From the IMG/VR virus record IMGVR_UViG_3300015607_004160: 64,000 nt of DNA; one strand, written 5' to 3'. Both the position numbers and the translations under genes were made by a program. Of this stretch, positions 331-50,055 are shown piece after piece; the stretch's first letter is position 1; the number at the start of each line of letters is the position of its first letter. A model generated the notes under the pieces. That model saw only the letters and a program-made list of their open reading frames with translations. It did no database searches and was not told the origin of the DNA. The DNA comes from a virus (taxonomy: Duplodnaviria > Caudoviricetes).

Positions 331-1455
331 TTATATTTTATAAAATTGTTTACGAATGTTTAGTAAAATTTCATTGATTAGTTCTGAATCTACTATATTT
401 GGTAATGTAGATAATTTAAATAATTCGTCAATTTCACGAATATCAGTTTCAGCATTGTTAATTAGAGTTTGTAGATCAACTTCACCCTTTCTAATTGAGA
501 CTAAATAATCTGCATTCGGTCTACGAACATTGATGCCTTTACCTTCAGCAATCTCTCTTGACATTTCAAGAAGCCTACGACAGTGCATCATATTCTTACC
601 ATCAATCTTCTGACCGTGCGACTGAACATCAACCCATCTTGCCTCATTTTTATTCTTTAACCAGGTTTCATAAGAACGGTAGTCATCACAATGAACAGTA
701 TATCCATCCTTATTATATGATACATATCCAAGAAAGTAATGGTGTGGGCAATCAACTGGAATAGAACTTAATCTAATATCATTTGAATCTTCAAAAGCAA
801 TACCTCTAAATCCCATTAATGGCTGAGTAGAATCTATAATTTCGGTACCAGCAGGTGATTTACCAGAAGCAACATAGTCATAGAATAGAGAATAGGTTTC
901 TCTACTATGAGGGACTTTTGCTAAACCACAATACTTTTGATCCATCCCACTTTTAGATAGAAAGTCAGAAAGGGGGAATGATTTTTCTTTGATATGTAAA
1001 AAGCAGAAATCTAATGGGGTTTTACGAGTAACCCTATTTTTTTCCCAATTTTGCTTTTTATCTTGCCCCTTTGCTTTAGATATTTGTGATTGTGCGTATT
1101 TACCATATGTATTTCTACACTGCTTAGTTATAAATTTATTTTTATTTTCTATAATTTGGTCAAAAATTGGATTTTTATATATAATACAATCTTTTGGTAA
1201 ATTTAAAATTTCCATAATTGTTGGATTATTAGCCCTTAGTAATTCCAAAAATTTTTTTACCTCATAAAAAACAATATCATTTTTAGCATCATTTACCTGA
1301 TCAATATATCCAAACCCTAATATAGTATCTATTGGAGCTACAAAAACTCCTTTTATATCCATATCAGATGTTTCAAGGTTAGTTCCGTAAGCATTCGATC
1401 CAACTATACCTTCAAATATTATTAGTTTATTATCTCTTAAATATTTAATATCCAT
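331..1455 (-). CDS. RlaP/YcgL-like predicted nucleotidyltransferase (Pol-beta superfamily)
   Basis: GIVGSNAYG...SDMDIKGVF motif, NNPTIME, C-terminal KNMMHCRRLL..IRKG helix. Confidence 0.8.
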   Translation of the reverse strand: MDIKYLRDNKLIIFEGIVGSNAYGTNLETSDMDIKGVFVAPIDTILGFGYIDQVNDAKNDIVFYEVKKFLELLRANNPTIMEILNLPKDCIIYKNPIFDQIIENKNKFITKQCRNTYGKYAQSQISKAKGQDKKQNWEKNRVTRKTPLDFCFLHIKEKSFPLSDFLSKSGMDQKYCGLAKVPHSRETYSLFYDYVASGKSPAGTEIIDSTQPLMGFRGIAFEDSNDIRLSSIPVDCPHHYFLGYVSYNKDGYTVHCDDYRSYETWLKNKNEARWVDVQSHGQKIDGKNMMHCRRLLEMSREIAEGKGINVRRPNADYLVSIRKGEVDLQTLINNAETDIREIDELFKLSTLPNIVDSELINEILLNIRKQFYKI

Positions 1456-1544: not shown

Positions 1545-2528
1545 ATGAATTTTATAGAGGCAAGAAATTTAGTTAGAAATTTAAAAATAAAATCGGTTAA
1601 AGATTGGAAAAATTATCATAGATGCAATCTACTTTCTAAAATTGGAATATCTATACATCCTAATAGGCAATATAGAAATATTGGATGGGTTGATTGGTAT
1701 GACTGGTTAGGAAAGTCTAAGGATAGTAGAAAATACTCAGTTAATGATCATTTTTTTAAAAATGAAAGTAGAAACATGTATTATATAATGGGAATTTTAT
1801 ATGCTGACGGATATTTAAATGATAGAAATAATAATATACTATTAACACAACATGTAGATGATAAATATTTATTAAATAATATTTTGATGGAAATGAATTC
1901 CAATTCAAAAATTAAAAAACACTATGGTAATAATGTATATTTTTCAATAACTTCAAAAGAAATTATTGAAGATCTGAAAAAATTTGGCCTACATCAATCT
2001 AAATCATTTACTATAAAATTTCCTAAAATAAATAGTGAATATGTATCAGATTTTATAAGAGGATTTTTTGATGGAGATGGATGTATAACATTTCAAAAAA
2101 ATGAAAACTGTTATGTATCTTCTTTTGCATCTGGTAGTTATAAATTCATAAATCAATTATTAGAAATACTAAGGGGAAAAATAGATGAATTTAAAGGATC
2201 TATATCCAAAATAGAGAACTCATATGTTTTGAATATAGGGGTTAATGATACTAGAAGATTAGGGAAATATATTTATAATAACATAGAAGGAGTTCTATAT
2301 TTAAAAAGAAAATATGAAAAATTTGTTTTATCAGGAGACATAAAGGTAGCTAATTTCAATAAACAATTCCTTTCATATCAAGAAGCTAAAAAATTTATAA
2401 AATCAAAAGGTATAAATGGATACAGAGAATGGAGGAATTATAAAAAAACTAATAATATTGAAAATATTCCATCAAATCCAGATAAAATATATAAAGAGTA
2501 TAAAAATTGGAAAAATTTTATTAGTTGA
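1545..2528 (+). CDS. LAGLIDADG homing endonuclease with integrase-repeat-like units at both ends
   Basis: YIMGILYADG and FIRGFFDGDG motifs; terminal repeats F.EA..V..L..KS..DW...P...Y...GW..W. Confidence 0.8.
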   Translation: MNFIEARNLVRNLKIKSVKDWKNYHRCNLLSKIGISIHPNRQYRNIGWVDWYDWLGKSKDSRKYSVNDHFFKNESRNMYYIMGILYADGYLNDRNNNILLTQHVDDKYLLNNILMEMNSNSKIKKHYGNNVYFSITSKEIIEDLKKFGLHQSKSFTIKFPKINSEYVSDFIRGFFDGDGCITFQKNENCYVSSFASGSYKFINQLLEILRGKIDEFKGSISKIENSYVLNIGVNDTRRLGKYIYNNIEGVLYLKRKYEKFVLSGDIKVANFNKQFLSYQEAKKFIKSKGINGYREWRNYKKTNNIENIPSNPDKIYKEYKNWKNFIS

Positions 2529-4722: not shown

Positions 4723-4793
4723 AATGTATATATTAAAATAGTTTTTCAATTTAATATATAAGATACGTACTGCTACCTTAGGATAGTACAAAA

Positions 4794-4820
4794 AACCACA
4801 CCCTTAGACCAGGTGTGGTT
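4794..4820 (-). terminator. Intrinsic terminator downstream of Nampt
   Basis: aaccacacc...ggtgtggtt inverted repeat with an A-run on the left (U-tail on the - strand). Confidence 0.6.
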
Positions 4821-4841
4821 TAATTTTATTATGAAATTTTA

Positions 4842-6593
4842 TTATGAATAGTTTTGAGCTAACTTTTTAGGAGCGTATTTCTTTAACAACTGAATCCTTA
4901 CCTCTTTAATCTTATCGGATGTTGGATAATTGTGATTGTCCATATTTGATAGCGTTAATGGCATTGTTTCCATTTGGTCTTGAATACGTTGTTTAATAGT
5001 CAAGAAGTCGTCATTATAACCCTCTTTGAAAGGTTCCCATATATCGGCCCCATTAAAATAATCGACCATTACATCTTCTCCTGGCTCGTCTGGGAAGACA
5101 ACTGTTTTCATAGACTCTAAAGCCTCTTTACTTCTTAAGAGTTTAAAGGGTCCTGGTAATGTTGTTTTCTCAAGTGTTTCAGAGAACTTACAAACAGGTT
5201 TAAATTCCTTACCAATAGCACATAGTGCATATTTAGCTGAGAAGTTATCTCTTGCTAATTCATTTCTCAATCCACCTCCAACTCCATAAAGACCCCAAGC
5301 GAAAGGAGGAAACCCATGTAGAATCAAATCTTCATTAATCTCTTTCATTTTTTCCCAACTCATACCATCACCTTCAATAAATTTCATACTTGTTCCAAAA
5401 CGCCATTCTTTTTTAAGAATTGTTTGTACAGTAGACAATCCGTGTTTGTGTGCCAATTTACATAACCATAATACTTGTTCTGCAGGATCTCCAGAGTCAG
5501 GGCGACCTACAACAACTTTGCCATTTTCTTCAATTGCATTTTGCATTGCTAACGGAAGTAAAATGTTTTCAACAGTGTCGAAATATGCGTAACAGTCAGC
5601 TACGTGTGAGTCAATAGATCCATCTTCAGCGACACTGTTTAATTTTTCGTGACAATCTTTTTCACTTTCAAACCCTTGAACATTTCTGTGAGCCAAAGCA
5701 AATACAGAACTTGCGATACCTGCAGCTTCTCCTGAATTTTTCCATGCTTGATATGCTCCAGAAAATGTATCTGTACCAGAAAAAATATAAAGTGCATCTG
5801 CGGCTAGCCATTCGGATTCTTGTGGAACCATACCCGCTCTACATCCAAAGTTATGTAACATTAATCCAGCTAAGAACTTTACCTGGTCTTTAGAAATGGT
5901 ATCTCTATATACATGATATACTATACTCTTACAATATTCAAACCAGTGAGCAAGTTGTGTAACCATTTCACAAGAAGCCCAAATCTTTAGAATTGTACTC
6001 TCAAACCAAGCAGCTAATTCACCAAATCCTTCTGGGATATTTTCAATGATAACAACTGGTTCATTTGGATATACAACCGATCCTTCTTTAACCGCTCTAA
6101 TTTTAATTGGAGGTCGACCATTATACTCATCTACAATTCTTCTCCAAAGTTCCTCTGGGAAGTACATTGGTTTAAGGCCTTTTGTAGTTACTTTCTTATC
6201 TGCTAAGAATCTTTTAGTTTCATCAATTTCTTCATGTGTAATTGGCTCGTAAAATAAATAATCAAGTATTCTTGACAAACCAGTAAATACAATACGATTA
6301 TCCCCTTTATTATAAAGATTGTGATTGACTTTTTCTAATACCCTACGATAGGTAATGTAATAAACAGATTTTTCTTTAGCTTCTTCTGAAGCGAACAAAT
6401 TAGAACTAATTGTATAAGAATCAGCGATTAGTAATCTTGGGGTTTTATGAATTTTTCTTTTAGGTAGTTTTACTTTTTTTACTTTTTTTACACTTATGAA
6501 CTCATCTGATTGATCGGTGTACGGTCTGCAGTATCCGAATGAAGTTCCAAATTGTGTATCTTCAATGTCGTAGTTATTATTGTGTGTTCCCAT
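4842..6593 (-). CDS. nadV: Nicotinamide phosphoribosyltransferase (Nampt/NadV-like)
   Basis: LIADSY, IRAVKEG, LHNFGCR, GTDT, RPDSGDP, EGDG, GVGGGL motifs. Confidence 0.85.
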   Translation of the reverse strand: MGTHNNNYDIEDTQFGTSFGYCRPYTDQSDEFISVKKVKKVKLPKRKIHKTPRLLIADSYTISSNLFASEEAKEKSVYYITYRRVLEKVNHNLYNKGDNRIVFTGLSRILDYLFYEPITHEEIDETKRFLADKKVTTKGLKPMYFPEELWRRIVDEYNGRPPIKIRAVKEGSVVYPNEPVVIIENIPEGFGELAAWFESTILKIWASCEMVTQLAHWFEYCKSIVYHVYRDTISKDQVKFLAGLMLHNFGCRAGMVPQESEWLAADALYIFSGTDTFSGAYQAWKNSGEAAGIASSVFALAHRNVQGFESEKDCHEKLNSVAEDGSIDSHVADCYAYFDTVENILLPLAMQNAIEENGKVVVGRPDSGDPAEQVLWLCKLAHKHGLSTVQTILKKEWRFGTSMKFIEGDGMSWEKMKEINEDLILHGFPPFAWGLYGVGGGLRNELARDNFSAKYALCAIGKEFKPVCKFSETLEKTTLPGPFKLLRSKEALESMKTVVFPDEPGEDVMVDYFNGADIWEPFKEGYNDDFLTIKQRIQDQMETMPLTLSNMDNHNYPTSDKIKEVRIQLLKKYAPKKLAQNYS

Positions 6594-6609: not shown

Positions 6610-7527
6610 TTATTTTGTTAGTAAAATAGACATCATTGATTGATGTTCTTCAACAATCAATTTTTGTATTCCACCAATTTCTTTTAAATCTTTTAAATCA
6701 AACCATCTGAGTTCTTCAACATCATCTGATGGTTCTAAATGACCAAATAGATATTTAGCCTTAAATAAGGTAGTCATAATTTTATCTCTTTCAGAACGAT
6801 ACCTCCAATCATCTACTCTGAAACTACCGATATACCCAGTTATAGAAATTTCAGCGCCGGCTTCTTCCATAAACTCCCTCTTGGCTGTATGTTCAAGTGA
6901 TGTGTCTTTAACATCCACAAATCCACCAATAAATCTATACTTATCTTCACCTGGCTTTTTAGCTAATAGAAGTTGGTTTTCTTCCTCATTAAAAACTGCA
7001 ACATCTACTGTTTGATAAGAGGTCGAATATCTATTATAACTACCATATATAACACCAGCTCTCCATTCTTTTGAGGATTTAATTTCTTCTGAAACTTGTT
7101 TTCTAACCTCTGTTCCAGATACATAGATTTCCTGTTCTAACTCAGCGGTATCAAATTGGCCTTTATAGTGTGGAATAAATGAATCTCTACTTCCGTATAG
7201 AAGTACATTTCCAATTTGAAATACTTCTCTAATTCTTGAGTCTAGATTTCTAGACCATATTTCATCACTTCTGGTATCAGGAAGAGATAGAACAACGATT
7301 TCCGGGTATTTTTCCTGAATCATTGCTTTTCTTGAAGCAAAATCGAGTGGGTTAGAACTTGATCCAATTACTTTAGTAACACCCAAGAAAAGGATTACTT
7401 TTTTGTGATTAGATAAAACACTTTCAATTACATCACAGTGTGCTTTATGAAGTTGATGTAACTGGAATCGACCAATGATTACTCCAATTTCATACTTACT
7501 TGTGTCTATGTCGTCTTTAATTTTCAT
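6610..7527 (-). CDS. Bifunctional NMN adenylyltransferase / Nudix ADP-ribose pyrophosphatase (NadM-Nudix, NatV-like)
   Basis: IGRFQ..HKAH nucleotidyltransferase motif, NPL, SGTEVR; Nudix box GGFVD...AKREFMEEAG. Confidence 0.9.
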   Translation of the reverse strand: MKIKDDIDTSKYEIGVIIGRFQLHQLHKAHCDVIESVLSNHKKVILFLGVTKVIGSSSNPLDFASRKAMIQEKYPEIVVLSLPDTRSDEIWSRNLDSRIREVFQIGNVLLYGSRDSFIPHYKGQFDTAELEQEIYVSGTEVRKQVSEEIKSSKEWRAGVIYGSYNRYSTSYQTVDVAVFNEEENQLLLAKKPGEDKYRFIGGFVDVKDTSLEHTAKREFMEEAGAEISITGYIGSFRVDDWRYRSERDKIMTTLFKAKYLFGHLEPSDDVEELRWFDLKDLKEIGGIQKLIVEEHQSMMSILLTK

Positions 7528-7582: not shown

Positions 7583-8326
7583 TTACTTCCCGTACCTTCC
7601 ATGAATTTTACCAATTCCATTTATATCTATTTCTACATACCTTTTTGGATCAATTACCAACATCTCACGAATGTATTCAAATTCATAAGGTAATTCTAAA
7701 ATAGACAACTCGTTTTTTAATTTTTCTTCTAATCCAATTGAGTCCTTAATAAAAAAGATATCCGTATCAGCATATATCCATCCGTCATATTTTGTAAAAT
7801 GTTCCATTATAGAGTATCCTCTGCCTGTTACTAACTCCCTTTCATCTTTTGTTAATTTTTTACCATAGAAGTAATTGACGTACATTTTCAAGCACATTTT
7901 TCCATCAGTACTTAATAATCCTCGGATTAATTTATATTTTTTAATTAGATAATAGAAAGATTCGTATTTTATATCAAGGTCTAAAATTTCCTCTTCGTGT
8001 AATCTACAAATAATATTGGGATAAAACATTGAAAATTCAATTTTTAAAACATCATTTGCTTTATATTGTGTTGAATATATCTGTGAGTAAGATCCTCCTT
8101 TCTTAACAAGAGGAAATTGTTGAGGTTTTTTCTGATCTAATTTGGATTCGATTCCAATTAATAATTCGATTCGATAAATTCTTCTAAGTGCAGTATTAAT
8201 ATTATTCCAAACATCAGCATTTCTGAAGTTCGTTTTATCATCATTAATTTCAGTTGAGAAATATTCGAATATTGATACAATATTATTAATGTATGTTTCC
8301 ATTTTGAACTTATCTTTAATGAACAA
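7583..8326 (-). CDS. Minimal/degenerate family B DNA polymerase catalytic core
   Basis: Motif A-like IEFSMFYPNII, motif B KMYVNYFYG, VTGRG, motif C YADTD and PKRY, all in canonical order. Confidence 0.65.
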   Translation of the reverse strand: MFIKDKFKMETYINNIVSIFEYFSTEINDDKTNFRNADVWNNINTALRRIYRIELLIGIESKLDQKKPQQFPLVKKGGSYSQIYSTQYKANDVLKIEFSMFYPNIICRLHEEEILDLDIKYESFYYLIKKYKLIRGLLSTDGKMCLKMYVNYFYGKKLTKDERELVTGRGYSIMEHFTKYDGWIYADTDIFFIKDSIGLEEKLKNELSILELPYEFEYIREMLVIDPKRYVEIDINGIGKIHGRYGK

Positions 8327-8381: not shown

Positions 8382-9620
8382 TTAATTTATTTCTTCATAA
8401 TATCCACCGGTATCACCCATTAACCCCTGTGCATCTATAGTAGTAGGATAATTTGAAATTATTTTGTCATCAAAATTAATATAAGTTAATGAATCAACAT
8501 AAGGATAGCGATCAAACCTTGACTTTTCTAATTTTACCGTATATTCAGCACTTTTAGATGTGACTCCGTTAGTAACATTAAATCTTTGTGATGAGTTTTG
8601 AACAGACTTAGACCACCAACCCTTCTCGAAGGCATATTTTTGAAATAAAGGAACATCCGAGTCATAGTTAGTGTATATTCTATCCATAAAAATATCTCCT
8701 TGATCTGTAGTCCAAACAAGAGCCCTACCTTTTATCTTTCTAGAAACATATTTATCACCTTGAATAGTTCCATTATCCGACTGCAGTATAAGAAGGCGAC
8801 AGTTTTTATTATTTGTATATATGTCAAAATAATCTTCATCAACATTCGCCATACAAGAGCTGCCTAATGTAGACTCCTCACATTCATAATTACTCATATT
8901 ATACCAATAAGCAATATCATCTCCTTCTACTAATCTAAATTTTAAAAAAGCATCATTCATCATATCATATGTAGATTTATATGAGTTTACAAAATCTTCA
9001 ATTTCCTTGTCTGTGAACTTTATTTCAGCAGCAGTCAGAACTGATCTAACTAGTCTTCCTATTTTAATATTATTCCTAAATGTTGACCATATCTTAGTTA
9101 ATTTTTCATCATATGGAATCACAGCTGTTTTATTTAAAACAGTTTGATTGCGACCATCTTCAGATACAAACCAAACATATATTCTATCACTCATATTAGA
9201 TTTAGCTTCACTTTTGATGATTCCTATAGCACCTCTTTCTGGTTCCCATGGATCCTCATCTTCATTAGGAGTATATCCTAATCTACTGAATATATCGAAA
9301 TTTCTTTTACTATTTGTTAAGTATCTATCTGTGTGAGTTACTCTATATTTAATAACTGGATCTTCATCTCCAAAAAATTCCTTAGCTTTTCTATCTGCGG
9401 TAAATGTTACTTCATCTTTGGCCTTTCCGGTATCTATGTAATTTTGAGTAAAATTTTTATCTACACCGTTTTTACTTAATGTAATTAGCTCTTTAGCTAT
9501 TCTATTTTTCTTAATTTGACTAACTAAATTAATAAACTTATCAGAATATTGAATTTTTGATTCCAATATTAATGATTCAAATAATAATTCAAATTGGAAA
9601 TCACTATATCTCTTAATCAT
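8382..9620 (-). CDS. Hypothetical phage protein (tag-like N-terminus; LGSSCM...GRALVW...MDRIY domain)
   Basis: 412-aa ORF with TAATATATA upstream; no function assignable. Confidence 0.7.
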   Translation of the reverse strand: MIKRYSDFQFELLFESLILESKIQYSDKFINLVSQIKKNRIAKELITLSKNGVDKNFTQNYIDTGKAKDEVTFTADRKAKEFFGDEDPVIKYRVTHTDRYLTNSKRNFDIFSRLGYTPNEDEDPWEPERGAIGIIKSEAKSNMSDRIYVWFVSEDGRNQTVLNKTAVIPYDEKLTKIWSTFRNNIKIGRLVRSVLTAAEIKFTDKEIEDFVNSYKSTYDMMNDAFLKFRLVEGDDIAYWYNMSNYECEESTLGSSCMANVDEDYFDIYTNNKNCRLLILQSDNGTIQGDKYVSRKIKGRALVWTTDQGDIFMDRIYTNYDSDVPLFQKYAFEKGWWSKSVQNSSQRFNVTNGVTSKSAEYTVKLEKSRFDRYPYVDSLTYINFDDKIISNYPTTIDAQGLMGDTGGYYEEIN

Positions 9621-19189: not shown

Positions 19190-21040
19190 ATGAAGTTAAG
19201 TATTATAACAAGGTGCTCCCGCCTTAACAATTTAAGAAAGGTTAAAGATTCTATATTCACAACTGATAAGTTTGATATTACATGGTATGTAATGTTTGAT
19301 TCCACAGTATTAAAAGATGTTGATGCAGAAATATTAGCAGAAATACAAGAAAAGCAAAGCAAAATATTTTTCATAAAAAGTATTCCTGGTGACTTTGGTC
19401 ATCAAATGATAAACAAAGCTATTTCTGATATTCAAGAGGGATTTATTTTTGTTTTAGATGATGATAATATTATACACGAAGATTTCTATGAAAATCTATA
19501 CACATCCATCAGAAATAATCCCGATAAAAGAGGATTTGTCTTTAATCAAAGAATCGATGGTAAAGATTTTACTGGTCAAGAAATTAGATATTGTGCCCCC
19601 GAAAGAATGAAGGTTAGTCAGGTAGACATGGCTCAAGTTGTATTTGAAAGAGGTTTAATTGGTAGTATACGACTTAATCCAATGAACTATATAGCTGATT
19701 CAATTTATATTGAAGAAGTATATAATAGAAATAATCCTAATGACTTTTATTTCATTAACAAAATAATGTGCTATTATAATTATCTACAAGGTAAAAGAGG
19801 AGCAAGTGTTCCAAAAATATTATACATTGGTGAAGGTCAACCAGAAATAAAATCAAATCAAAGAGCTTGGTGGGAATCTGATGCTTTAGATATTTTGTAT
19901 AGAAATGATGATACTTCTTTAAATAAAGATATTTATAACTTTGATCCTGATTTTATTGTTACTGTTGGAAATAAAGAGAATAAAAATTTAGTTAATTCAA
20001 ATTTAGATATTAAAAAAAGATGGATCAATTTAAATAGTCTTGATCAGATAGGTGAGATTGTATATAATTCTTCAATGAATTATATCTTGGAAAATAATAA
20101 TAAAAAGTTAGTTTCTTTCTTCACTCCAATTTATAATATTACTGACAAATTAGTAAGATTATATGAATCAATAGCTGCCCAAACGCATACTAATTGGGAG
20201 TGGGTATTAGTAAATGATTCATCCGATGGGGGCAAAACACTTAAAGTTGCAGAAGGATTGGCAGCAAAAGATCCAAGAGTTAAAGTTTACGACTTTAGAG
20301 AGAAGAGCAAGGGAATTATTGGTGAATCAAAATATAGAGCTGCTATGTTATGTAGAGGATACATATTAGCTGAGCTTGATCATGATGATTATATTACTCC
20401 CGATAGTGCTGAACTTTTATTAAAAGCATTTGATAAATATCCAGATGCTGGATTTGTATATACTGATTGTGTTGAAATAACCGAAGATTGGAAAACATTA
20501 ACATATGGTGATGGTTTTTGTTTTGGATATGGAAAATATAGAAAGGAAATGCATATGGGAATAGAGATGGATGTTAATGAGTCACCAAATATTAATCCTA
20601 AAACAATAAGGCACATTGTTGGAATTCCTAATCACATAAGATGCTGGAAGAGAGAAACATATTTAAAAATTGGTGGCCACAATAGAAGACTATCAATTGC
20701 TGATGATTATGAATTAATAATTAGAACATTTTTAGAAACAAAGTTTGTAAGAATTGTCAAGAATTGTTATCTGCAGTTTATTTATAACTCAACTGCATCA
20801 TCCAATACACATGAGTTATCAAGAGCTGATATACAAAGAAGAGTCAGGTCAATTGCTGATTTTTACAACTATAAAATTTATAAAAGATTTGAAGAGCTAG
20901 GTATAGAAGATTGGGCATATAAAGGAAACCAAGCTAATCCACTGTTGGTACCTAGTAGATTCGGGGATGAAGAAGGATCAGTCAACTATACATACTATCC
21001 TGAAAATCAATCAGTTAGTGCTGAGGGTTTGGTTTTTTAA
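19190..21040 (+). CDS. Two-domain GT2-like glycosyltransferase
   Basis: N-terminal LDDDN; second domain VSFFTPIYN...WEWVLVNDSSD...ELDHDD...ADDYEL. Confidence 0.85.
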   Translation: MKLSIITRCSRLNNLRKVKDSIFTTDKFDITWYVMFDSTVLKDVDAEILAEIQEKQSKIFFIKSIPGDFGHQMINKAISDIQEGFIFVLDDDNIIHEDFYENLYTSIRNNPDKRGFVFNQRIDGKDFTGQEIRYCAPERMKVSQVDMAQVVFERGLIGSIRLNPMNYIADSIYIEEVYNRNNPNDFYFINKIMCYYNYLQGKRGASVPKILYIGEGQPEIKSNQRAWWESDALDILYRNDDTSLNKDIYNFDPDFIVTVGNKENKNLVNSNLDIKKRWINLNSLDQIGEIVYNSSMNYILENNNKKLVSFFTPIYNITDKLVRLYESIAAQTHTNWEWVLVNDSSDGGKTLKVAEGLAAKDPRVKVYDFREKSKGIIGESKYRAAMLCRGYILAELDHDDYITPDSAELLLKAFDKYPDAGFVYTDCVEITEDWKTLTYGDGFCFGYGKYRKEMHMGIEMDVNESPNINPKTIRHIVGIPNHIRCWKRETYLKIGGHNRRLSIADDYELIIRTFLETKFVRIVKNCYLQFIYNSTASSNTHELSRADIQRRVRSIADFYNYKIYKRFEELGIEDWAYKGNQANPLLVPSRFGDEEGSVNYTYYPENQSVSAEGLVF

Positions 21041-23036
21041 TAGTTTTTTAGTATTTTTGTATAAATACACTAAATCGGAATTTGAAAAAGGATCTCCAAC
21101 AGCATATGTAAAATCAGGTAAAATGGGGTGGAAAGATGAAATATGTAGACATATGACCACTAATGGAAATAAATATAATAGATGTGTATATGCTATAGAG
21201 TTTTCAGATAGATCAGTTTACATAGGTCTATCTTATAATTCTGAGAAGAGATATAACCAGCATCTTGATGTTAAAAACAATTCAATTGTACTAAGACATC
21301 ACAAAAAAACAGGATTGATCCCAACTATTAAAAGACTGACAGAATATATTGATGTTGAAGAAGCTTCTAAATTAGAAAAATTAAAATTAAAGGAATATTT
21401 GAATGATGGGTGGCTAATATTAAACATTGCCAAATGTGGCAATGTCGGTGGAAAAACAATTAAATGGACAAAAGAGAGGTGTGAAGAGGAGTCAAATAAA
21501 TATAAATCACGCAATGAATTTAAAATAAACTCACCTCATGCATATAATGCTGCACGTAGAAATAAATGGATTGATGAAATATGTAATCATATGAATAACA
21601 ATATAACCAAATGGGATAGAAAATCTTGTGAAGAGGAGTCAAAAAAATTTAAAAATAGAGAAGAATTTAAGAAAAAGTCTAGTGGGGCATATGGATACGC
21701 GTATAGAAATGGATTGTTAGACATTTTTTTCACAAAGGAGATATTAGAAAAATATAGTGAAGAAGTATCATATTTACCATCATATGAAGAATGTGTTGAT
21801 ATATGCTCGTCTGATGATTCTCCATTTTATGAATCTAAGATAATAGTTGATGGGTATAACATAAGTATGTTTAATTATAGATTGGCATCATATAAAGATT
21901 TCCTAATTAAACCCTTCGCTAAGGAAATGAGAGGATTATGTTTTGTCTTTAATTCTGATGGGACTGTATATGATAGATTTATTCTACTAGAAAAATTTTT
22001 TAATTTAAATCAAGTTCCTGAGTCTATGTATTCAATTGTTAAAGACTACAAAATTAAATATGTAAATAATAAGGAAGATGGTTCAATTGCATCATTTATT
22101 AGGCTACCTAATGGTAAAATAGTCGGTAGAAGTAAAATGGGATTTGATAATGATCAAGCAATTGGTATTAATAAAGTATACAAAACAAATAGTGATATTA
22201 GGCAGTTTGTTAATTCAATGATGTCATTAAATTATGTGCCTATATTTGAATATGTTTCTAATTTCAATCGTGTTGTATTAAAATATTCAAAGGAGGAGTT
22301 AATTTTATTAAGATTAAGAGATAATAAGACTGGTAAACACATAGACATTAAAAATCATGTAGACAAGCTAGGATCAATTAAAATTGCTCCATTTAAAGAT
22401 GATTTCGTTGACTTAGATAGTTTAATTGAACTAACTGGAACAGAAGTTGATAAAGAAGGATATGTTGTCCAAGCAGTTGATGAAAATGGTAAAGACTTTT
22501 TCTTTAAGTTAAAGACACCTTGGTATTGTGAAAGACATGGATTACTAACTGAAGACTTATATAAAGAGAATATTATCTTAGGATATATTCTTGATGATAA
22601 GATTGATGACATTCTTGGACAAATTCCAGAAGATGAAAAAGAAGCTCGTGATAGAATCTATAAGTTGGTAGATATAGTTAAGAAGGCAATTGCTGAAAAA
22701 TCACATGATGTAGATAAATTATATGCAGAGTTTGTGAAGATGAATAGAAGTAAGAGAGATTTTGCCATTAAGTATTCAAGACATAAAGATTTTGCTATTG
22801 TTATGGAGCTAGTTAAAGCAGATGATTTGAAAAAATTAACTAAAGAAGAAATAGCTGATAGATATGCTAATATTGAAAGCTATGAAACACTACTTAATAG
22901 ATTAGATAAATATGAATTAATAAAATCTTGGATAAAAGACTCTACAAAGAGATTATTGTTAGCAAGAAACTGGATTAAGAAAATGGATCCTGAAATGTTT
23001 TTTAGAAATCCAATTGAAAATGAGGAAGACAATTAA
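20967..23036 (+). CDS. GIY-YIG endonuclease fused in frame to T4 Rnl1-like RNA ligase (start uncertain, possibly 21123)
   Basis: VYAIEF..VYIG...R...H and KWT.E.C..E repeats; then FNY, EMRG, EKFFN, KEDGS, FEY, EGYVV, KLK..WY Rnl1 motifs. Confidence 0.8.
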   Translation: MKKDQSTIHTILKINQLVLRVWFFNSFLVFLYKYTKSEFEKGSPTAYVKSGKMGWKDEICRHMTTNGNKYNRCVYAIEFSDRSVYIGLSYNSEKRYNQHLDVKNNSIVLRHHKKTGLIPTIKRLTEYIDVEEASKLEKLKLKEYLNDGWLILNIAKCGNVGGKTIKWTKERCEEESNKYKSRNEFKINSPHAYNAARRNKWIDEICNHMNNNITKWDRKSCEEESKKFKNREEFKKKSSGAYGYAYRNGLLDIFFTKEILEKYSEEVSYLPSYEECVDICSSDDSPFYESKIIVDGYNISMFNYRLASYKDFLIKPFAKEMRGLCFVFNSDGTVYDRFILLEKFFNLNQVPESMYSIVKDYKIKYVNNKEDGSIASFIRLPNGKIVGRSKMGFDNDQAIGINKVYKTNSDIRQFVNSMMSLNYVPIFEYVSNFNRVVLKYSKEELILLRLRDNKTGKHIDIKNHVDKLGSIKIAPFKDDFVDLDSLIELTGTEVDKEGYVVQAVDENGKDFFFKLKTPWYCERHGLLTEDLYKENIILGYILDDKIDDILGQIPEDEKEARDRIYKLVDIVKKAIAEKSHDVDKLYAEFVKMNRSKRDFAIKYSRHKDFAIVMELVKADDLKKLTKEEIADRYANIESYETLLNRLDKYELIKSWIKDSTKRLLLARNWIKKMDPEMFFRNPIENEEDN

Positions 23037-29502: not shown

Positions 29503-31368
29503 TTATTTAACTTCTTCAAAAGGAGTATCCTCTGTTTGAGTTTCTACTGTATCATCTGGATTTGTATTTTGATACAAATTAGTACTTATTTTATTCCAGG
29601 TTTCATTAAGATTACTCATACTTTCATCAATCTTAATAAGATCCCTCATTTTATGAGCTTCTTTTAACTTATCAAGTGATTCATTAAGTTGAGTTTTATT
29701 TTCTTCAGTTAGTTTATCAGAAAATTCTTTGATTTGTTTTTCGGTTTGAAAAATCATAGAATCTGCCTGATTAACCTTATCAACTGCTTCTTTTTCTTTA
29801 CGATCTTCTTCGGCATGTGCTTCAGCTTCCTGTTTCATTTTTTCAATCTCATCTTTAGTAAGTTGTGATCCACCTTCTATTCTGATTTTATTCTCTTTAC
29901 CAGTTGCTTTATCTTTTGCGTGAACTGAAAGAACACCATTAGAGTCAATATCTAATGTAACCTCAATTTGAGGAACACCTCTTGGAGAAGGCATGATACC
30001 ATCCAAATGAAATCTACCTAAAGAGCGGTTATCTCTAGCCATTGGTCTTTCACCCTGTAAGATATGAATTTCAACACTTGGTTGATTATCAGAAGCGGTA
30101 GAAAATGTTTCGGACTTTCTTGTTGGAATAGTTGTGTTAGCTTCAATTAATTTTGTAAACACACCACCCATTGTTTCAATACCAAGTGATAAAGGTGTTA
30201 CATCTAAAAGAAGAACATCTGTAATCTCACCACTTAATACAGCTCCTTGAATCGCAGCTCCAATAGCCACTACTTCATCAGGATTAACTGATTTATTGGG
30301 TTTCTTATTGAAAAATTTTTCAACGGCTTCTTGAACCGCTGGAATTCTTGTAGAACCACCAACAAGGATAACCTCATCAATATCAGTTATTTTTAATTTT
30401 GCACTCTTAAGAGCTGATTTACAATAAGCAATTGTTTTATCAACATATTTACCAATCATTTGCTCAAACTTAGCCTTAGTTAAAGTTTTAACAAAGTGTA
30501 AAGGAGCACCATCTCTCGCAGTAATATAAGGTAGATTGATTTCAGTTTGAGTGGTTGAAGATAATTCAATTTTAGCTTTTTCAGCAGCCTCTTTTAATCT
30601 TTGTAGAGCCATTGGATCCTTTGAGAGATCCATAGATTGATCAGCTTTAAACTCATCAATCATCCAAGTGATAATTTGGTTATCAAAGTCATCACCACCA
30701 AGGTGGGTATCACCATCAGTAGATTTAACTTCAAATACACCATCACCAATTTCGAGAACAGAAATATCAAATGTACCACCACCTAGGTCAAATACAATAA
30801 TTTTTTGTTCTTTTTCTTTTTTGTCTAAACCATAGGCCAACGCAGCGGCAGTAGGTTCGTTAATAATTCTTTCTACTTGAAGACCAGCAATTTTACCAGC
30901 TTCCATTGTAGCAGTTCTTTCAGCATCACCAAAATAGGCAGGAACAGTAATTACAGCCTTTGTAACTTCTTGTCCCAAGAAATCTTCAGCTGTTTTTTTC
31001 ATTTTCTGAAGGATCATAGCTGATACTTCTTGTGGAGTATAATCTCTGTCTCCAATTTCAACAACAGGAACATTGTTGCTATTACTTTTAACTTTATAAG
31101 GAACTCTTTTCATTTCTGATCCAACATCCTTATAATTCTTACCAATAAACCTTTTAATTGAATAAACGGTTTTACTTGGATTTGTAACTGCTTGACGCTT
31201 AGCCGGATCACCAACCTTTCTATCAGCATCAGTAAATCCAACTACAGAAGGAGTTGTTCTTTTACCTTCGTTATTTGGAATAATTACTGGCTCACCGCCT
31301 TCAACAACAGAGACACAACTGTTTGTGGTTCCAAGGTCCACACCTATAACATATTCTTTTTTACTCAT
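29503..31368 (-). CDS. dnaK: Hsp70 chaperone DnaK
   Basis: [59 protein letters not shown]. Confidence 0.97.
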
Positions 31369-47697: not shown

Positions 47698-50055
47698 ATG
47701 AAACACATAAATAAATTTAAATTATTCAACGAAGCTTTCCTACAAGAGGATAAGAAAAAAGCTATAGATATTATTGTATCATATATAACCAAAAATTCTA
47801 ATGTAGATTTATATGAATACGAAGAAATATGGCATATACAAAAGAAAGACCTATTTTTAAGTGGTCAATTATTTGTTTCATTAAGATCTTCTAAAGCCAT
47901 AAGATTCAATTGGATAGAAAATGATATTAGATCAGAAATTCATAGCATAGATATGTGGACTAGCTTCAAATTTGACGAGAATCCAGAATACACCTTAGAA
48001 TTAGGCCAAAATTCAATAACTAAAATATTACCACAGATATTAAATTTTGTAAAAGATCCATCAATTTTAGTTAAGGAGGAATTAGATATAGAAGAAGGTG
48101 GATACGACCCAAGACAAGAATTAGAAGCAGCAGTTAAAAGATTGGGTAAATTAAGAAGCCCTAAATCAATAGCTTCTCAAGAAAGAAAAATAGAACAGTT
48201 AAAAGCAGCAATTGCTTATGATGAAAAAGCAGAAACAGATAGTGAAAAAATCAATCAACTAGATGATGATTTAAAAATTGATATATTCAAGTCTATTGAG
48301 CTATATACAATTCAAGTAGCAAGAGGAAAATCAAATTCACTAGTTATATCTGGTGATGCAGGTGTTGGTAAGTGTCACGGAAAAGGAACAAAAATATTAA
48401 TGTATGATGGATCAATTAAAAATGTTGAGGATATAGAAGTTGGTGAATTTTTAATGGGAAATGATTCTAAACCAAGAAAAGTATTATCACTTGGCCGTGG
48501 TAAAGATATAATTTATGAAATTAAATCAAAAGGATGGGATAGCTTCACTGTAAATTCGGAGCATATTCTAGTTTTAAGAAATAGAAAAAAATCATCAAAT
48601 AAACCATTTGAAATCTCAGTTAAAGACTTTTTACAAAAAAGTAAAACCTTTCAGGATCAATCACAACTTATTAGAACATCCGTTGAATTTAAAGAAAAAG
48701 AAATAAAGATGGATCCCTATTTAATGGGAATATGGTTAGGTGATGGGGCAAGAACATCACCACATGGAATAGAAACGGCTGATGCTGAGATAGTATCTTT
48801 TTTAGAAGAAAAGGCAAATGATTATAATCTATTACTTAAAAAACATACAAATAAAAAAAGTAAAAGTGATGGGTACTATTTTTCTTCGGGTAGTTTTGGA
48901 AAAGGATTAAAATTAGAAAGAAATGAATTTTTAAATGATTTAAAAGAATATAAACTATACAATTGCGTTGAGAAATTTATACCAAATGATTATTTAATAA
49001 ATTCTACAGATATTAGAAAGAAATTATTAGCTGGTCTAATAGATTCAGATGGATATCAATTTCATAAATCCTATTCAATATGTACAAAATGGGAAAAGTT
49101 AGCTAACCAAATTGTTTTTCTATCAAGATCTCTCGGATTTAAATCACACATATCTATAAAAACTATCAAAGGGAAAGAATATTATAATATTAATATATCT
49201 GGAGACCTATCAGACTTACCAATAAGGTTGGAAAGGAAGAAAAGTGAAAAAAGAAATCAAGTTAAAAATGTACTTAATTCCGGATTTATCATATCTGAAG
49301 TTGGTTATGATGATTACTATGGGTTTGAATTGGATGATAATCATCTATATTTACTTGGAGATTTTACAGTAACACACAACACTCAGACAGTTAAAGATAC
49401 ATTGTCATCATTAGGAATGCAAAAAGATACACACTATTACTTTGCGACAGGCACAGCAACAACTGCTGGATTATATGAATTGTTATTCAAAAATAGACAT
49501 AAATTAACAGTTTTTGATGACTGTGATGCGGTTTTTAAAGAAGCCGAATCGGTAAATATACTTAAAGGTGCATTAGATACATATAAAATTAGAGAAATAT
49601 CTAGTTTAACAAAGGGGAATAAATTTGATTCAGCTGGAATGGATGAGAAGGAAATTCAAGAAACATATGATGCTAGTGGTAAACTTCCGAATAAATTTGA
49701 ATTTACTGGTCAAATAATATTTATTTCAAATTTACCTGAATCTAAATTTGACGATGCTTTACTTTCAAGGGCATTACATGTTGATGTTCATTTAAGTAAA
49801 AAGGAATTATTTGCTAGAATGAGTGAGATTATGAGAAAATTATCCCCAGATGTTACAATGGAAAAAAAGCAAGAAGCTTTAGAATATCTAACATTTGTTA
49901 CGAATAACTATCCAACTAAATTTGATATGAATATTAGAACATTAATTCACTCTATTAATTTAAGAGCGAATAACGAAGAAACTATCAAAATTGGTGATAG
50001 AGAAGAAGCGGTTTGGAAGCTTTTGGTGAAAAAATACCTTGTACGATCTAGATAA
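47698..50055 (+). CDS. Tagged AAA-type P-loop ATPase interrupted by an intein
   Basis: GDAGVGK|T Walker A, VFDDCD Walker B, ILKGALD, IIFISN, ALLSR. Confidence 0.85.
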   Translation: MKHINKFKLFNEAFLQEDKKKAIDIIVSYITKNSNVDLYEYEEIWHIQKKDLFLSGQLFVSLRSSKAIRFNWIENDIRSEIHSIDMWTSFKFDENPEYTLELGQNSITKILPQILNFVKDPSILVKEELDIEEGGYDPRQELEAAVKRLGKLRSPKSIASQERKIEQLKAAIAYDEKAETDSEKINQLDDDLKIDIFKSIELYTIQVARGKSNSLVISGDAGVGKCHGKGTKILMYDGSIKNVEDIEVGEFLMGNDSKPRKVLSLGRGKDIIYEIKSKGWDSFTVNSEHILVLRNRKKSSNKPFEISVKDFLQKSKTFQDQSQLIRTSVEFKEKEIKMDPYLMGIWLGDGARTSPHGIETADAEIVSFLEEKANDYNLLLKKHTNKKSKSDGYYFSSGSFGKGLKLERNEFLNDLKEYKLYNCVEKFIPNDYLINSTDIRKKLLAGLIDSDGYQFHKSYSICTKWEKLANQIVFLSRSLGFKSHISIKTIKGKEYYNINISGDLSDLPIRLERKKSEKRNQVKNVLNSGFIISEVGYDDYYGFELDDNHLYLLGDFTVTHNTQTVKDTLSSLGMQKDTHYYFATGTATTAGLYELLFKNRHKLTVFDDCDAVFKEAESVNILKGALDTYKIREISSLTKGNKFDSAGMDEKEIQETYDASGKLPNKFEFTGQIIFISNLPESKFDDALLSRALHVDVHLSKKELFARMSEIMRKLSPDVTMEKKQEALEYLTFVTNNYPTKFDMNIRTLIHSINLRANNEETIKIGDREEAVWKLLVKKYLVRSR
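48373..49380 (+). mobile_element. Intein (336 aa) with LAGLIDADG endonuclease
   Basis: Starts CHGKGT, block B TVNSEH, GIWLGDG and LAGLIDSDG motifs, ends VTHN followed by Thr. Confidence 0.92.

Follow-up and report, generated by a model that had tools for sequence, protein, structure and literature searches.

The window analysed here, a 64,000-nucleotide stretch of DNA (IMG/VR record IMGVR_UViG_3300015607_004160), clearly comes from a very large tailed phage, and one of its genes encodes a protein, hereafter mini-PolB, that structure prediction confirmed as the palm and fingers of a family B DNA polymerase (PolB) without exonuclease or thumb. The gene lies immediately upstream of the two NAD salvage genes of the NARP2 pathway, and this linkage, conserved across deep divergence, is its most informative feature and one that goes beyond the original prediction, which was made from the sequence alone. 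We document the fold and domain limits of mini-PolB, its family, the selection acting on it, the loss of catalytic residues and the conserved gene order; our leading explanation, to which we give nearly an even chance, is that mini-PolB is a non-catalytic, PolB-derived accessory of NARP2.

The mini-PolB gene and its motifs

Mini-PolB is encoded on the minus strand by an ORF of 247 aa (7583..8326) that can be read from a TTG at 8326. Since all ten close homologues of the window protein (10/10; 238-246 aa) start at an internal Met, which is here the ATG at 8302, this ATG is probably the true start and the window product probably has 239 aa, judging from the sequence; the 247-aa ORF of the original prediction is present, but the protein itself is probably the shorter one. 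The gene and its motifs are located as follows:

7583..8302, minus strand: mini-PolB gene, probably 239 aa from the ATG at 8302 (homologue starts, AF2, Foldseek, VIA-align)
8009-8050, minus strand: motif A strand and helix, VLKIEFSMFYPNII, by translation; Glu97 replaces the catalytic Asp of PolBs and Tyr102 is the steric-gate Tyr
7862-7888, minus strand: motif B, KMYVNYFYG (KxxxNSxYG pattern), in the second finger helix; coordinates by translation
7760-7774, minus strand: motif C, YADTD; coordinates by translation
7637-7645, minus strand: KxY motif, KRY; coordinates by translation; the protein ends 17 residues on, at the palm/thumb junction

Motifs A, B, C and KxY keep in this ORF the order that they have in PolBs, as originally predicted, and translation of 7583-8326 verified each of them, including the Glu of motif A; Lys147, Asn151, Tyr102, KRY and DTD are all present. 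On the 3' side of motif B there is a TGRG, to be compared with the VTxxGR that is typical of PolBs after motif B. A 'GG' that had also been listed among the PolB motifs shows no conservation across the mini-PolB family and is without meaning.

Predicted fold and domain limits

An AF2 model of the window protein was obtained with a mean pLDDT of 77 and a pTM of 0.72. When this model was searched against the PDB with Foldseek, family B polymerases alone were found among the matches listed, with E values of 4e-8 to 2e-6, and VIA-align superposed 169 residues at an rmsd of 3.2 A (Z 12.7), placing model residues 75-244 on KOD-type residues 384-609; longer VIA-align alignments extend back as far as model residue ~18 on KOD residue ~331. 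Following the published KOD limits, we take the aligned part to run from the final helices of the N-terminal domain through the palm and the two-helix fingers and back into the palm, ending at the palm/thumb junction. VIA-align also matches herpes UL8 (Z ~11.7) and the C-terminal half of Pol epsilon (Z 10.3). Searches of the ESM Atlas are concordant with the PolB shape, which further small viral clusters share. Structure prediction thus recovered the palm-fingers fold that the motifs had suggested, and the likeness of the modelled protein to PolB far exceeds chance expectation.

According to the structural alignment, the exonuclease, N-terminal and thumb domains are all absent, which agrees with the predicted lack of exonuclease and thumb, and only ~75 residues precede the palm. 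The fingers, which had been described as very short, consist of two helices (~residues 122-156) and are indeed short when compared with T4/RB69, but they are near archaeal PolB size.

At the level of sequence profiles, no meaningful match for the window protein was obtained in the Pfam, PHROGs and NCBIfam libraries, and Pfam DNA_pol_B (PF00136) did not match it at gathering score; the same model matches one of the 34 family members described below (1/34, E 0.017). The family profile, when run against PDB sequences, retrieved a single PolB (E 0.63), the aligned stretches being motif A and motif C/KxY. Compared with family B DNA polymerases (PF00136; KOD/Tgo Pol, Pol alpha, RB69 gp43), mini-PolB has the same palm-plus-fingers fold and the same A-B-C-KxY order, with a recognisable steric-gate Tyr, motif B Asn, Tyr and Gly, and DTD; unlike them, it has ~240 aa and a Glu in place of the motif A Asp, its family has lost the motif A acid in half of its members, and it stays below every Pfam threshold. 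A conserved, excised palm-fingers module of ~240 residues, missed by sequence-profile libraries, is a new architecture among PolBs, and mini-PolB could serve as a natural minimal PolB core for studying palm and fingers alone. In the literature searched, neither a family of ~240-aa thumbless PolB palm-fingers proteins nor a PolB-like gene attached to NARP2 is described; a PolB survey that dropped sequences of <200 residues and singletons reported no such group.

A family of short proteins under purifying selection

When 1.84 billion cluster representatives were searched exhaustively with phmmer, there were 34 relatives of 76-287 aa, most of them between 236 and 287 aa, and none of these 34 was full-length or fused. 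With the two nearest relatives for which DNA was available, mini-PolB has a dN/dS of 0.12-0.14 at an unsaturated dS of 0.5-0.6, and NMNAT and NAMPT have values of 0.03-0.08 in the same genome pairs; by this measure purifying selection on mini-PolB is clear and ~3x looser than on the two enzymes. Both the same-length homologues and the dN/dS values, which had been suggested as a check on the original prediction, speak against decay: as seen from these sequence comparisons, mini-PolB is not a decaying fragment. The family is small, and its members come from phage genomes of very large size and from metagenomic contigs.

Among GenBank phages, tblastn found one match for the window mini-PolB and none for two distant family members; a profile scan of IMG/VR with the family alignment returned no relative, and the record nearest to the window, G001, has neither a PolB nor a mini-PolB. 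A 241-aa protein of Aeromonas phage 65.2, which appeared as a weak BFVD match, was rejected, as its genome is unmatched by the family profile and has no such gene beside its NAMPT.

An apparently two-piece PolB in a related phage

LR745206 is a related 634-kb phage whose NAMPT is 56% identical to that of the window. Its main PolB is apparently carried in two genes located ~100 kb apart:

L016:445-1872, minus strand: LR745206 PolB piece (LR745206 ~130.6-132 kb)
L017:379-1923, plus strand: LR745206 PolB piece (LR745206 232.8-234.3 kb)

One of the pieces is a 515-aa product with motif A, and the other a 476-aa product with KxY, the Pfam polymerase model being matched to its end. The mini-PolB of this phage is a third gene, separate from both. 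Alignment of the family with the two LR745206 pieces by hhalign gave short motif-level matches at most, and a tblastn search of the window with the same pieces found nothing.

In the window, the gene that precedes mini-PolB is the following:

8382-9620, minus strand: 412-aa protein of no detectable family, just upstream of mini-PolB

This gene is conserved beside mini-PolB in the window's own lineage only, with 57-90% identity and a dN/dS of 0.10-0.30. As a candidate for the missing part of the polymerase it was rejected: neither a sequence search of the PDB nor an hhalign comparison with the PolB pieces gave a match, and its AF2 model is poor (pLDDT 51).

That mini-PolB is itself a piece of a split replicative PolB, as the original prediction had entertained, or a decaying PolB fragment, seems to us scarcely credible. 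The split main PolB of the related huge phage would be in keeping with such an origin, as would the fact that mini-PolB covers exactly one PolB structural unit; however, motif A and KxY are already supplied by the two LR745206 pieces, which cover the Pfam polymerase domain as far as its end, with mini-PolB as a third gene, all 34 relatives (34/34) are short and none is full-length, with a dN/dS of 0.12-0.14, and the upstream 412-aa neighbour is without similarity to the PolB pieces.

Catalytic residues in the family

The residues of the polymerase motifs were counted over the 46 unique sequences of the mini-PolB family (n=46):

Motif A metal ligand: Glu in 20, Asp in 3, non-acidic in 23 (S, N, Q, T, V, G)
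Motif B Lys: kept in 25/46
Steric-gate Tyr: kept in 42/46
Motif B Asn: kept in 44/46
Motif B Gly: kept in 44/46
Motif C first Asp: kept in 40/46
Motif C second Asp: kept in 41/46
KxY: K in 36/46, Y or F in 34/46

Two-metal catalysis in PolBs requires the carboxylates of motif A and motif C both. Taking this requirement together with the absence of the motif A acid from half of the family, polymerisation would not be the common function of these proteins, and the polymerase chemistry of mini-PolB has probably been lost. In four relatives with 40-50% identity to the window protein (P0011, P0013, P0014 and P0015), motif A already carries S or N in place of the acid, which indicates that the acid is not under constraint; in one NAD-linked member of the family, motif A has S and motif C reads DRE. 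The mini-PolB of LR745206 (L010:6007-6657), which is unlinked to the NAD genes, has a canonical motif A Asp (IDFNSLYPN); in NCBIfam it matches the Npun_R2821/R2822 family weakly, below threshold (E 3e-5).

In the window clade, Glu97, Lys147 and the intact DTD may still allow some residual metal-dependent chemistry. A full version of this idea, in which the clade holds an active minimal nucleotidyltransferase that uses Glu97 and Asp187/Asp189 as metal ligands and either adds nucleotides without a thumb or acts on a small substrate, we regard as decidedly improbable. It can call on the Glu or Asp present at motif A in 23/46 sequences, among them the entire close clade of the window, on the DxD kept in ~40/46, on Lys147, Asn151, Tyr102 and KRY in the window copy, and on the PF00483 nucleotidyltransferase found upstream of NMNAT-Nudix in one contig (L026); it must, however, face the S or N that the four relatives named above already have in motif A, the crippling effect that motif A Asp-to-Glu changes have in known PolBs, and the absence of both a thumb and a partner domain. 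Among the three functions originally proposed, that of a repurposed nucleotidyltransferase or nucleotide-binding protein survives in its nucleotide-binding version, which fits best because the family keeps the pocket residues and half of its members are without the motif A metal ligand.

Conserved gene order with the NAD salvage genes

As originally predicted, mini-PolB is directly upstream of NAD salvage genes, and these correspond to the two NARP2 enzymes:

6610-7527, minus strand: bifunctional NMN adenylyltransferase/Nudix hydrolase (NMNAT-Nudix; NadM/NatV type, NARP2 enzyme 2), 55 bp downstream of mini-PolB
4842-6593, minus strand: nicotinamide phosphoribosyltransferase (NAMPT/NadV, NARP2 enzyme 1); PF04095, PF18127, phrog_448 E 6.9e-46
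4793..4821, minus strand: strong terminator-like hairpin, 11-bp stem and T run, just 3' of NAMPT

The window NMNAT-Nudix matches PF00293 (Nudix) and a cytidyltransferase PHROG, its relatives are named bifunctional NMN adenylyltransferase/nudix hydrolase in their sources, and an identical protein is on record from contigs as long as 338 kb. It is separated from NAMPT by 16 bp. No terminator-like site was found in the window between mini-PolB, NMNAT-Nudix and NAMPT, and since the hairpin at 4793..4821 is the sole such site on its strand between 4500 and 10000, it probably ends a mini-PolB/NMNAT/NAMPT transcript.

The same arrangement, with mini-PolB immediately upstream of NMNAT-Nudix and NAMPT, was found in 10 loci (the window, L001, L002/L003, L004, L005/L006, L009, L019, L020, L024 and L025), which include contigs of 341 kb (L001), 401 kb (L004) and 384 kb (L024). 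The distance from mini-PolB to NMNAT goes from a 4-bp overlap (L009) through 1-3 bp (L025, L004) up to ~110 bp, and a 67-aa ORF stands between them in L001 and L002/L003. The L004 mini-PolB is just 26% identical to the window protein, adjacency to NMNAT-Nudix persisting down to ~25% identity, and the NAD-linked members are spread over at least three deep clades of the family tree and over three flanking neighbourhoods. As the flanks differ among the three locus groups, the trio stays together while its surroundings change. When sampled from the NMNAT side, mini-PolB is present on 2/3 large contigs. The third, L026 (GCA_902730705.1, 253 kb), has in the place of mini-PolB, immediately before NMNAT-Nudix, a PF00483 NTP_transferase of 285 aa (L026:4124-4981), which may be a functional stand-in or a coincidence.

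One clade of mini-PolB is located away from the NAD genes (L007, L008 and the ~640-kb phages LR745206, LR756504 and LR756502); in these three phages NARP2 is present hundreds of kb from mini-PolB, and the neighbours of the unlinked gene in LR745206 were uninformative. NARP2 was also found without any mini-PolB in LR756500 and in Tunturiibacter phage Tunturi_5, and in KVP40 it works as two genes, rebuilding NAD+ against NAD-depleting defences (10.1101/2024.02.11.579819). Given that NARP2 occurs and works without it, mini-PolB is an optional companion and not a requirement of the pathway.

Further downstream, a PRPP synthetase-like gene lies a few genes after NAMPT in four contigs (L004:14066-15019, L024:8444-9448, L025:9536-10495 and L026:8660-9649); in the window, the region just after NAMPT showed none. 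L004 additionally encodes an RNA 2'-phosphotransferase (Tpt1/KptA type), and L024 a deoxyribosyltransferase and a CCA-adding/polyA polymerase.

Among the loci examined, no conserved replication gene was found next to mini-PolB. This weighs on another possible role, that of a non-catalytic replisome or DNA-binding accessory like UL8 or the Pol epsilon C-terminal half, which would bind the split polymerase of the phage, its helicase-primase or the primer-template, the adjacency to NARP2 reflecting expression timing only. We find such a role unlikely, while recognising that several observations agree with it: UL8 and the Pol epsilon C-terminal half are among the structural matches (Z 10-12), KxY, which in PolBs contacts the primer end, is largely kept (K 36/46, Y or F 34/46), the two-piece main PolB of the related huge phage suggests that PolB pieces assemble non-covalently in this group, and one mini-PolB clade is unlinked to the NAD genes. 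A protein without a thumb would, however, have a weak grip on the duplex, and the adjacency to NMNAT-Nudix holds to ~25% identity and in three neighbourhoods, with some loci overlapping or 1-3 bp apart, whereas replication genes are not conserved neighbours.

Known examples of inactivated PolBs are UL8, the C-terminal half of Pol epsilon and archaeal groups (PMC7544198). The first two, which are matched in structure at Z 10-12, are PolB-derived scaffolds that have kept the fold and lost catalysis, but they keep the full multi-domain PolB and work in replisomes, whereas mini-PolB is a single module by a metabolic counter-defence operon. When set against these inactivated scaffolds, the mini-PolB family has lost the motif A acid family-wide, yet the window copy has Glu and DTD.

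A possible accessory of NARP2

In the explanation that we prefer, that of a NARP2 accessory, mini-PolB is a palm-plus-fingers module excised from a family B DNA polymerase and standing alone, which retains the residues of the PolB nucleotide pocket (steric-gate Tyr, motif B Asn and Gly, motif C Asp residues). It would be co-transcribed, as the first gene, with NMNAT-Nudix and NAMPT, and would act in NAD metabolism as a nucleotide-binding regulator or adaptor, possibly by contacting NMNAT-Nudix. Against this explanation, common ancestry and co-expression, and not a shared function, could account for the linked loci, one clade is unlinked and NARP2 also exists without mini-PolB, and the complex prediction is weak, with runs that disagree.

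In that prediction, mini-PolB with NMNAT-Nudix obtained a score of 0.33, the best of three controls having 0.01, which weakly supports an interaction. The individual runs gave 0.00, 0.37 and 0.33, with a contact agreement between runs of at least 0% and a partner pLDDT of at least 79. The mark used is reached by 58/80 solved complexes and 2/110 mismatched pairs, and at ≤0.60 by 7/80 solved complexes and both of the passing mismatches, counts that hold only roughly here because the alignments were our own. The odds that mini-PolB physically binds NMNAT-Nudix are raised only slightly by this model.

The two genes downstream of mini-PolB encode the same enzymes, in the same adjacent arrangement, as NARP2 of KVP40 (NadV/NatV; 10.1101/2024.02.11.579819). 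NARP2 has been described as a two-gene system, and a PolB-like third gene is unmentioned in the literature searched. Many related phages have mini-PolB at the head of the NARP2 operon, and the protein may thus be a third, so far undescribed component of this counter-defence pathway. A more specific proposal, about which we are considerably more doubtful, is that this third part is regulatory: a dead palm whose pocket would sense a nucleotide (dNTP, ATP, ADP-ribose or NAD) or a DNA end, and which would tune the rebuilding of NAD+ or limit its PRPP cost through contact with NMNAT-Nudix. If true, mini-PolB would be the first example of a replicative polymerase whose core has been turned into a regulator of metabolism or counter-defence. 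The persistent position of mini-PolB at the head of the NARP2 operon of huge phages suggests an unrecognised partner in some lineages, with relevance to how phages control the costly rebuilding of NAD+ in the arms race with NAD-depleting defences.

The proximity to a counter-defence pathway could also be read in a different way, with mini-PolB as an anti-defence decoy or sponge, that is, a polymerase look-alike or nucleotide-pocket protein that titrates a host sensor or a signalling nucleotide and stands beside NARP2 through counter-defence clustering. We hold this to be rather improbable. Mini-PolB does evolve ~3x faster than the neighbouring enzymes by dN/dS, and its identity between the window and LR745206 is 26%, vs 41% for NMNAT-Nudix and 56% for NAMPT; it adjoins a known counter-defence pathway (10.1101/2024.02.11.579819), and its catalysis is dispensable and its pocket residues are kept, all of which would suit a decoy. 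Fast evolution fits any non-enzymatic adaptor equally well, however, and the Pfam, PHROGs and NCBIfam libraries contain no relatives of mini-PolB.

The divPolA1 and divPolA2 proteins (PMC11348598) are likewise extra, reduced polymerase-like genes in phages that have a main polymerase, with truncated or missing thumbs and no working exonuclease; they differ from mini-PolB in belonging to family A, in being much larger and in keeping their catalytic residues.

Other features of the window

The window is AT-rich (~28% G+C) and encodes a collagen-like tail fibre. Several other ORFs were noted in it:

331-1455, minus strand: RlaP-type RNA-repair nucleotidyltransferase
1545-2528, plus strand: free-standing LAGLIDADG homing endonuclease-like ORF
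20967-23036, plus strand: one ORF that joins a GIY-YIG nuclease domain and a T4 Rnl1-type RNA ligase
29503-31368, minus strand: full-length Hsp70/DnaK homologue (Pfam E 2e-255)
47698-50055, plus strand: terminase large subunit-like ORF split by an intein (Hint domain and LAGLIDADG homing endonuclease)
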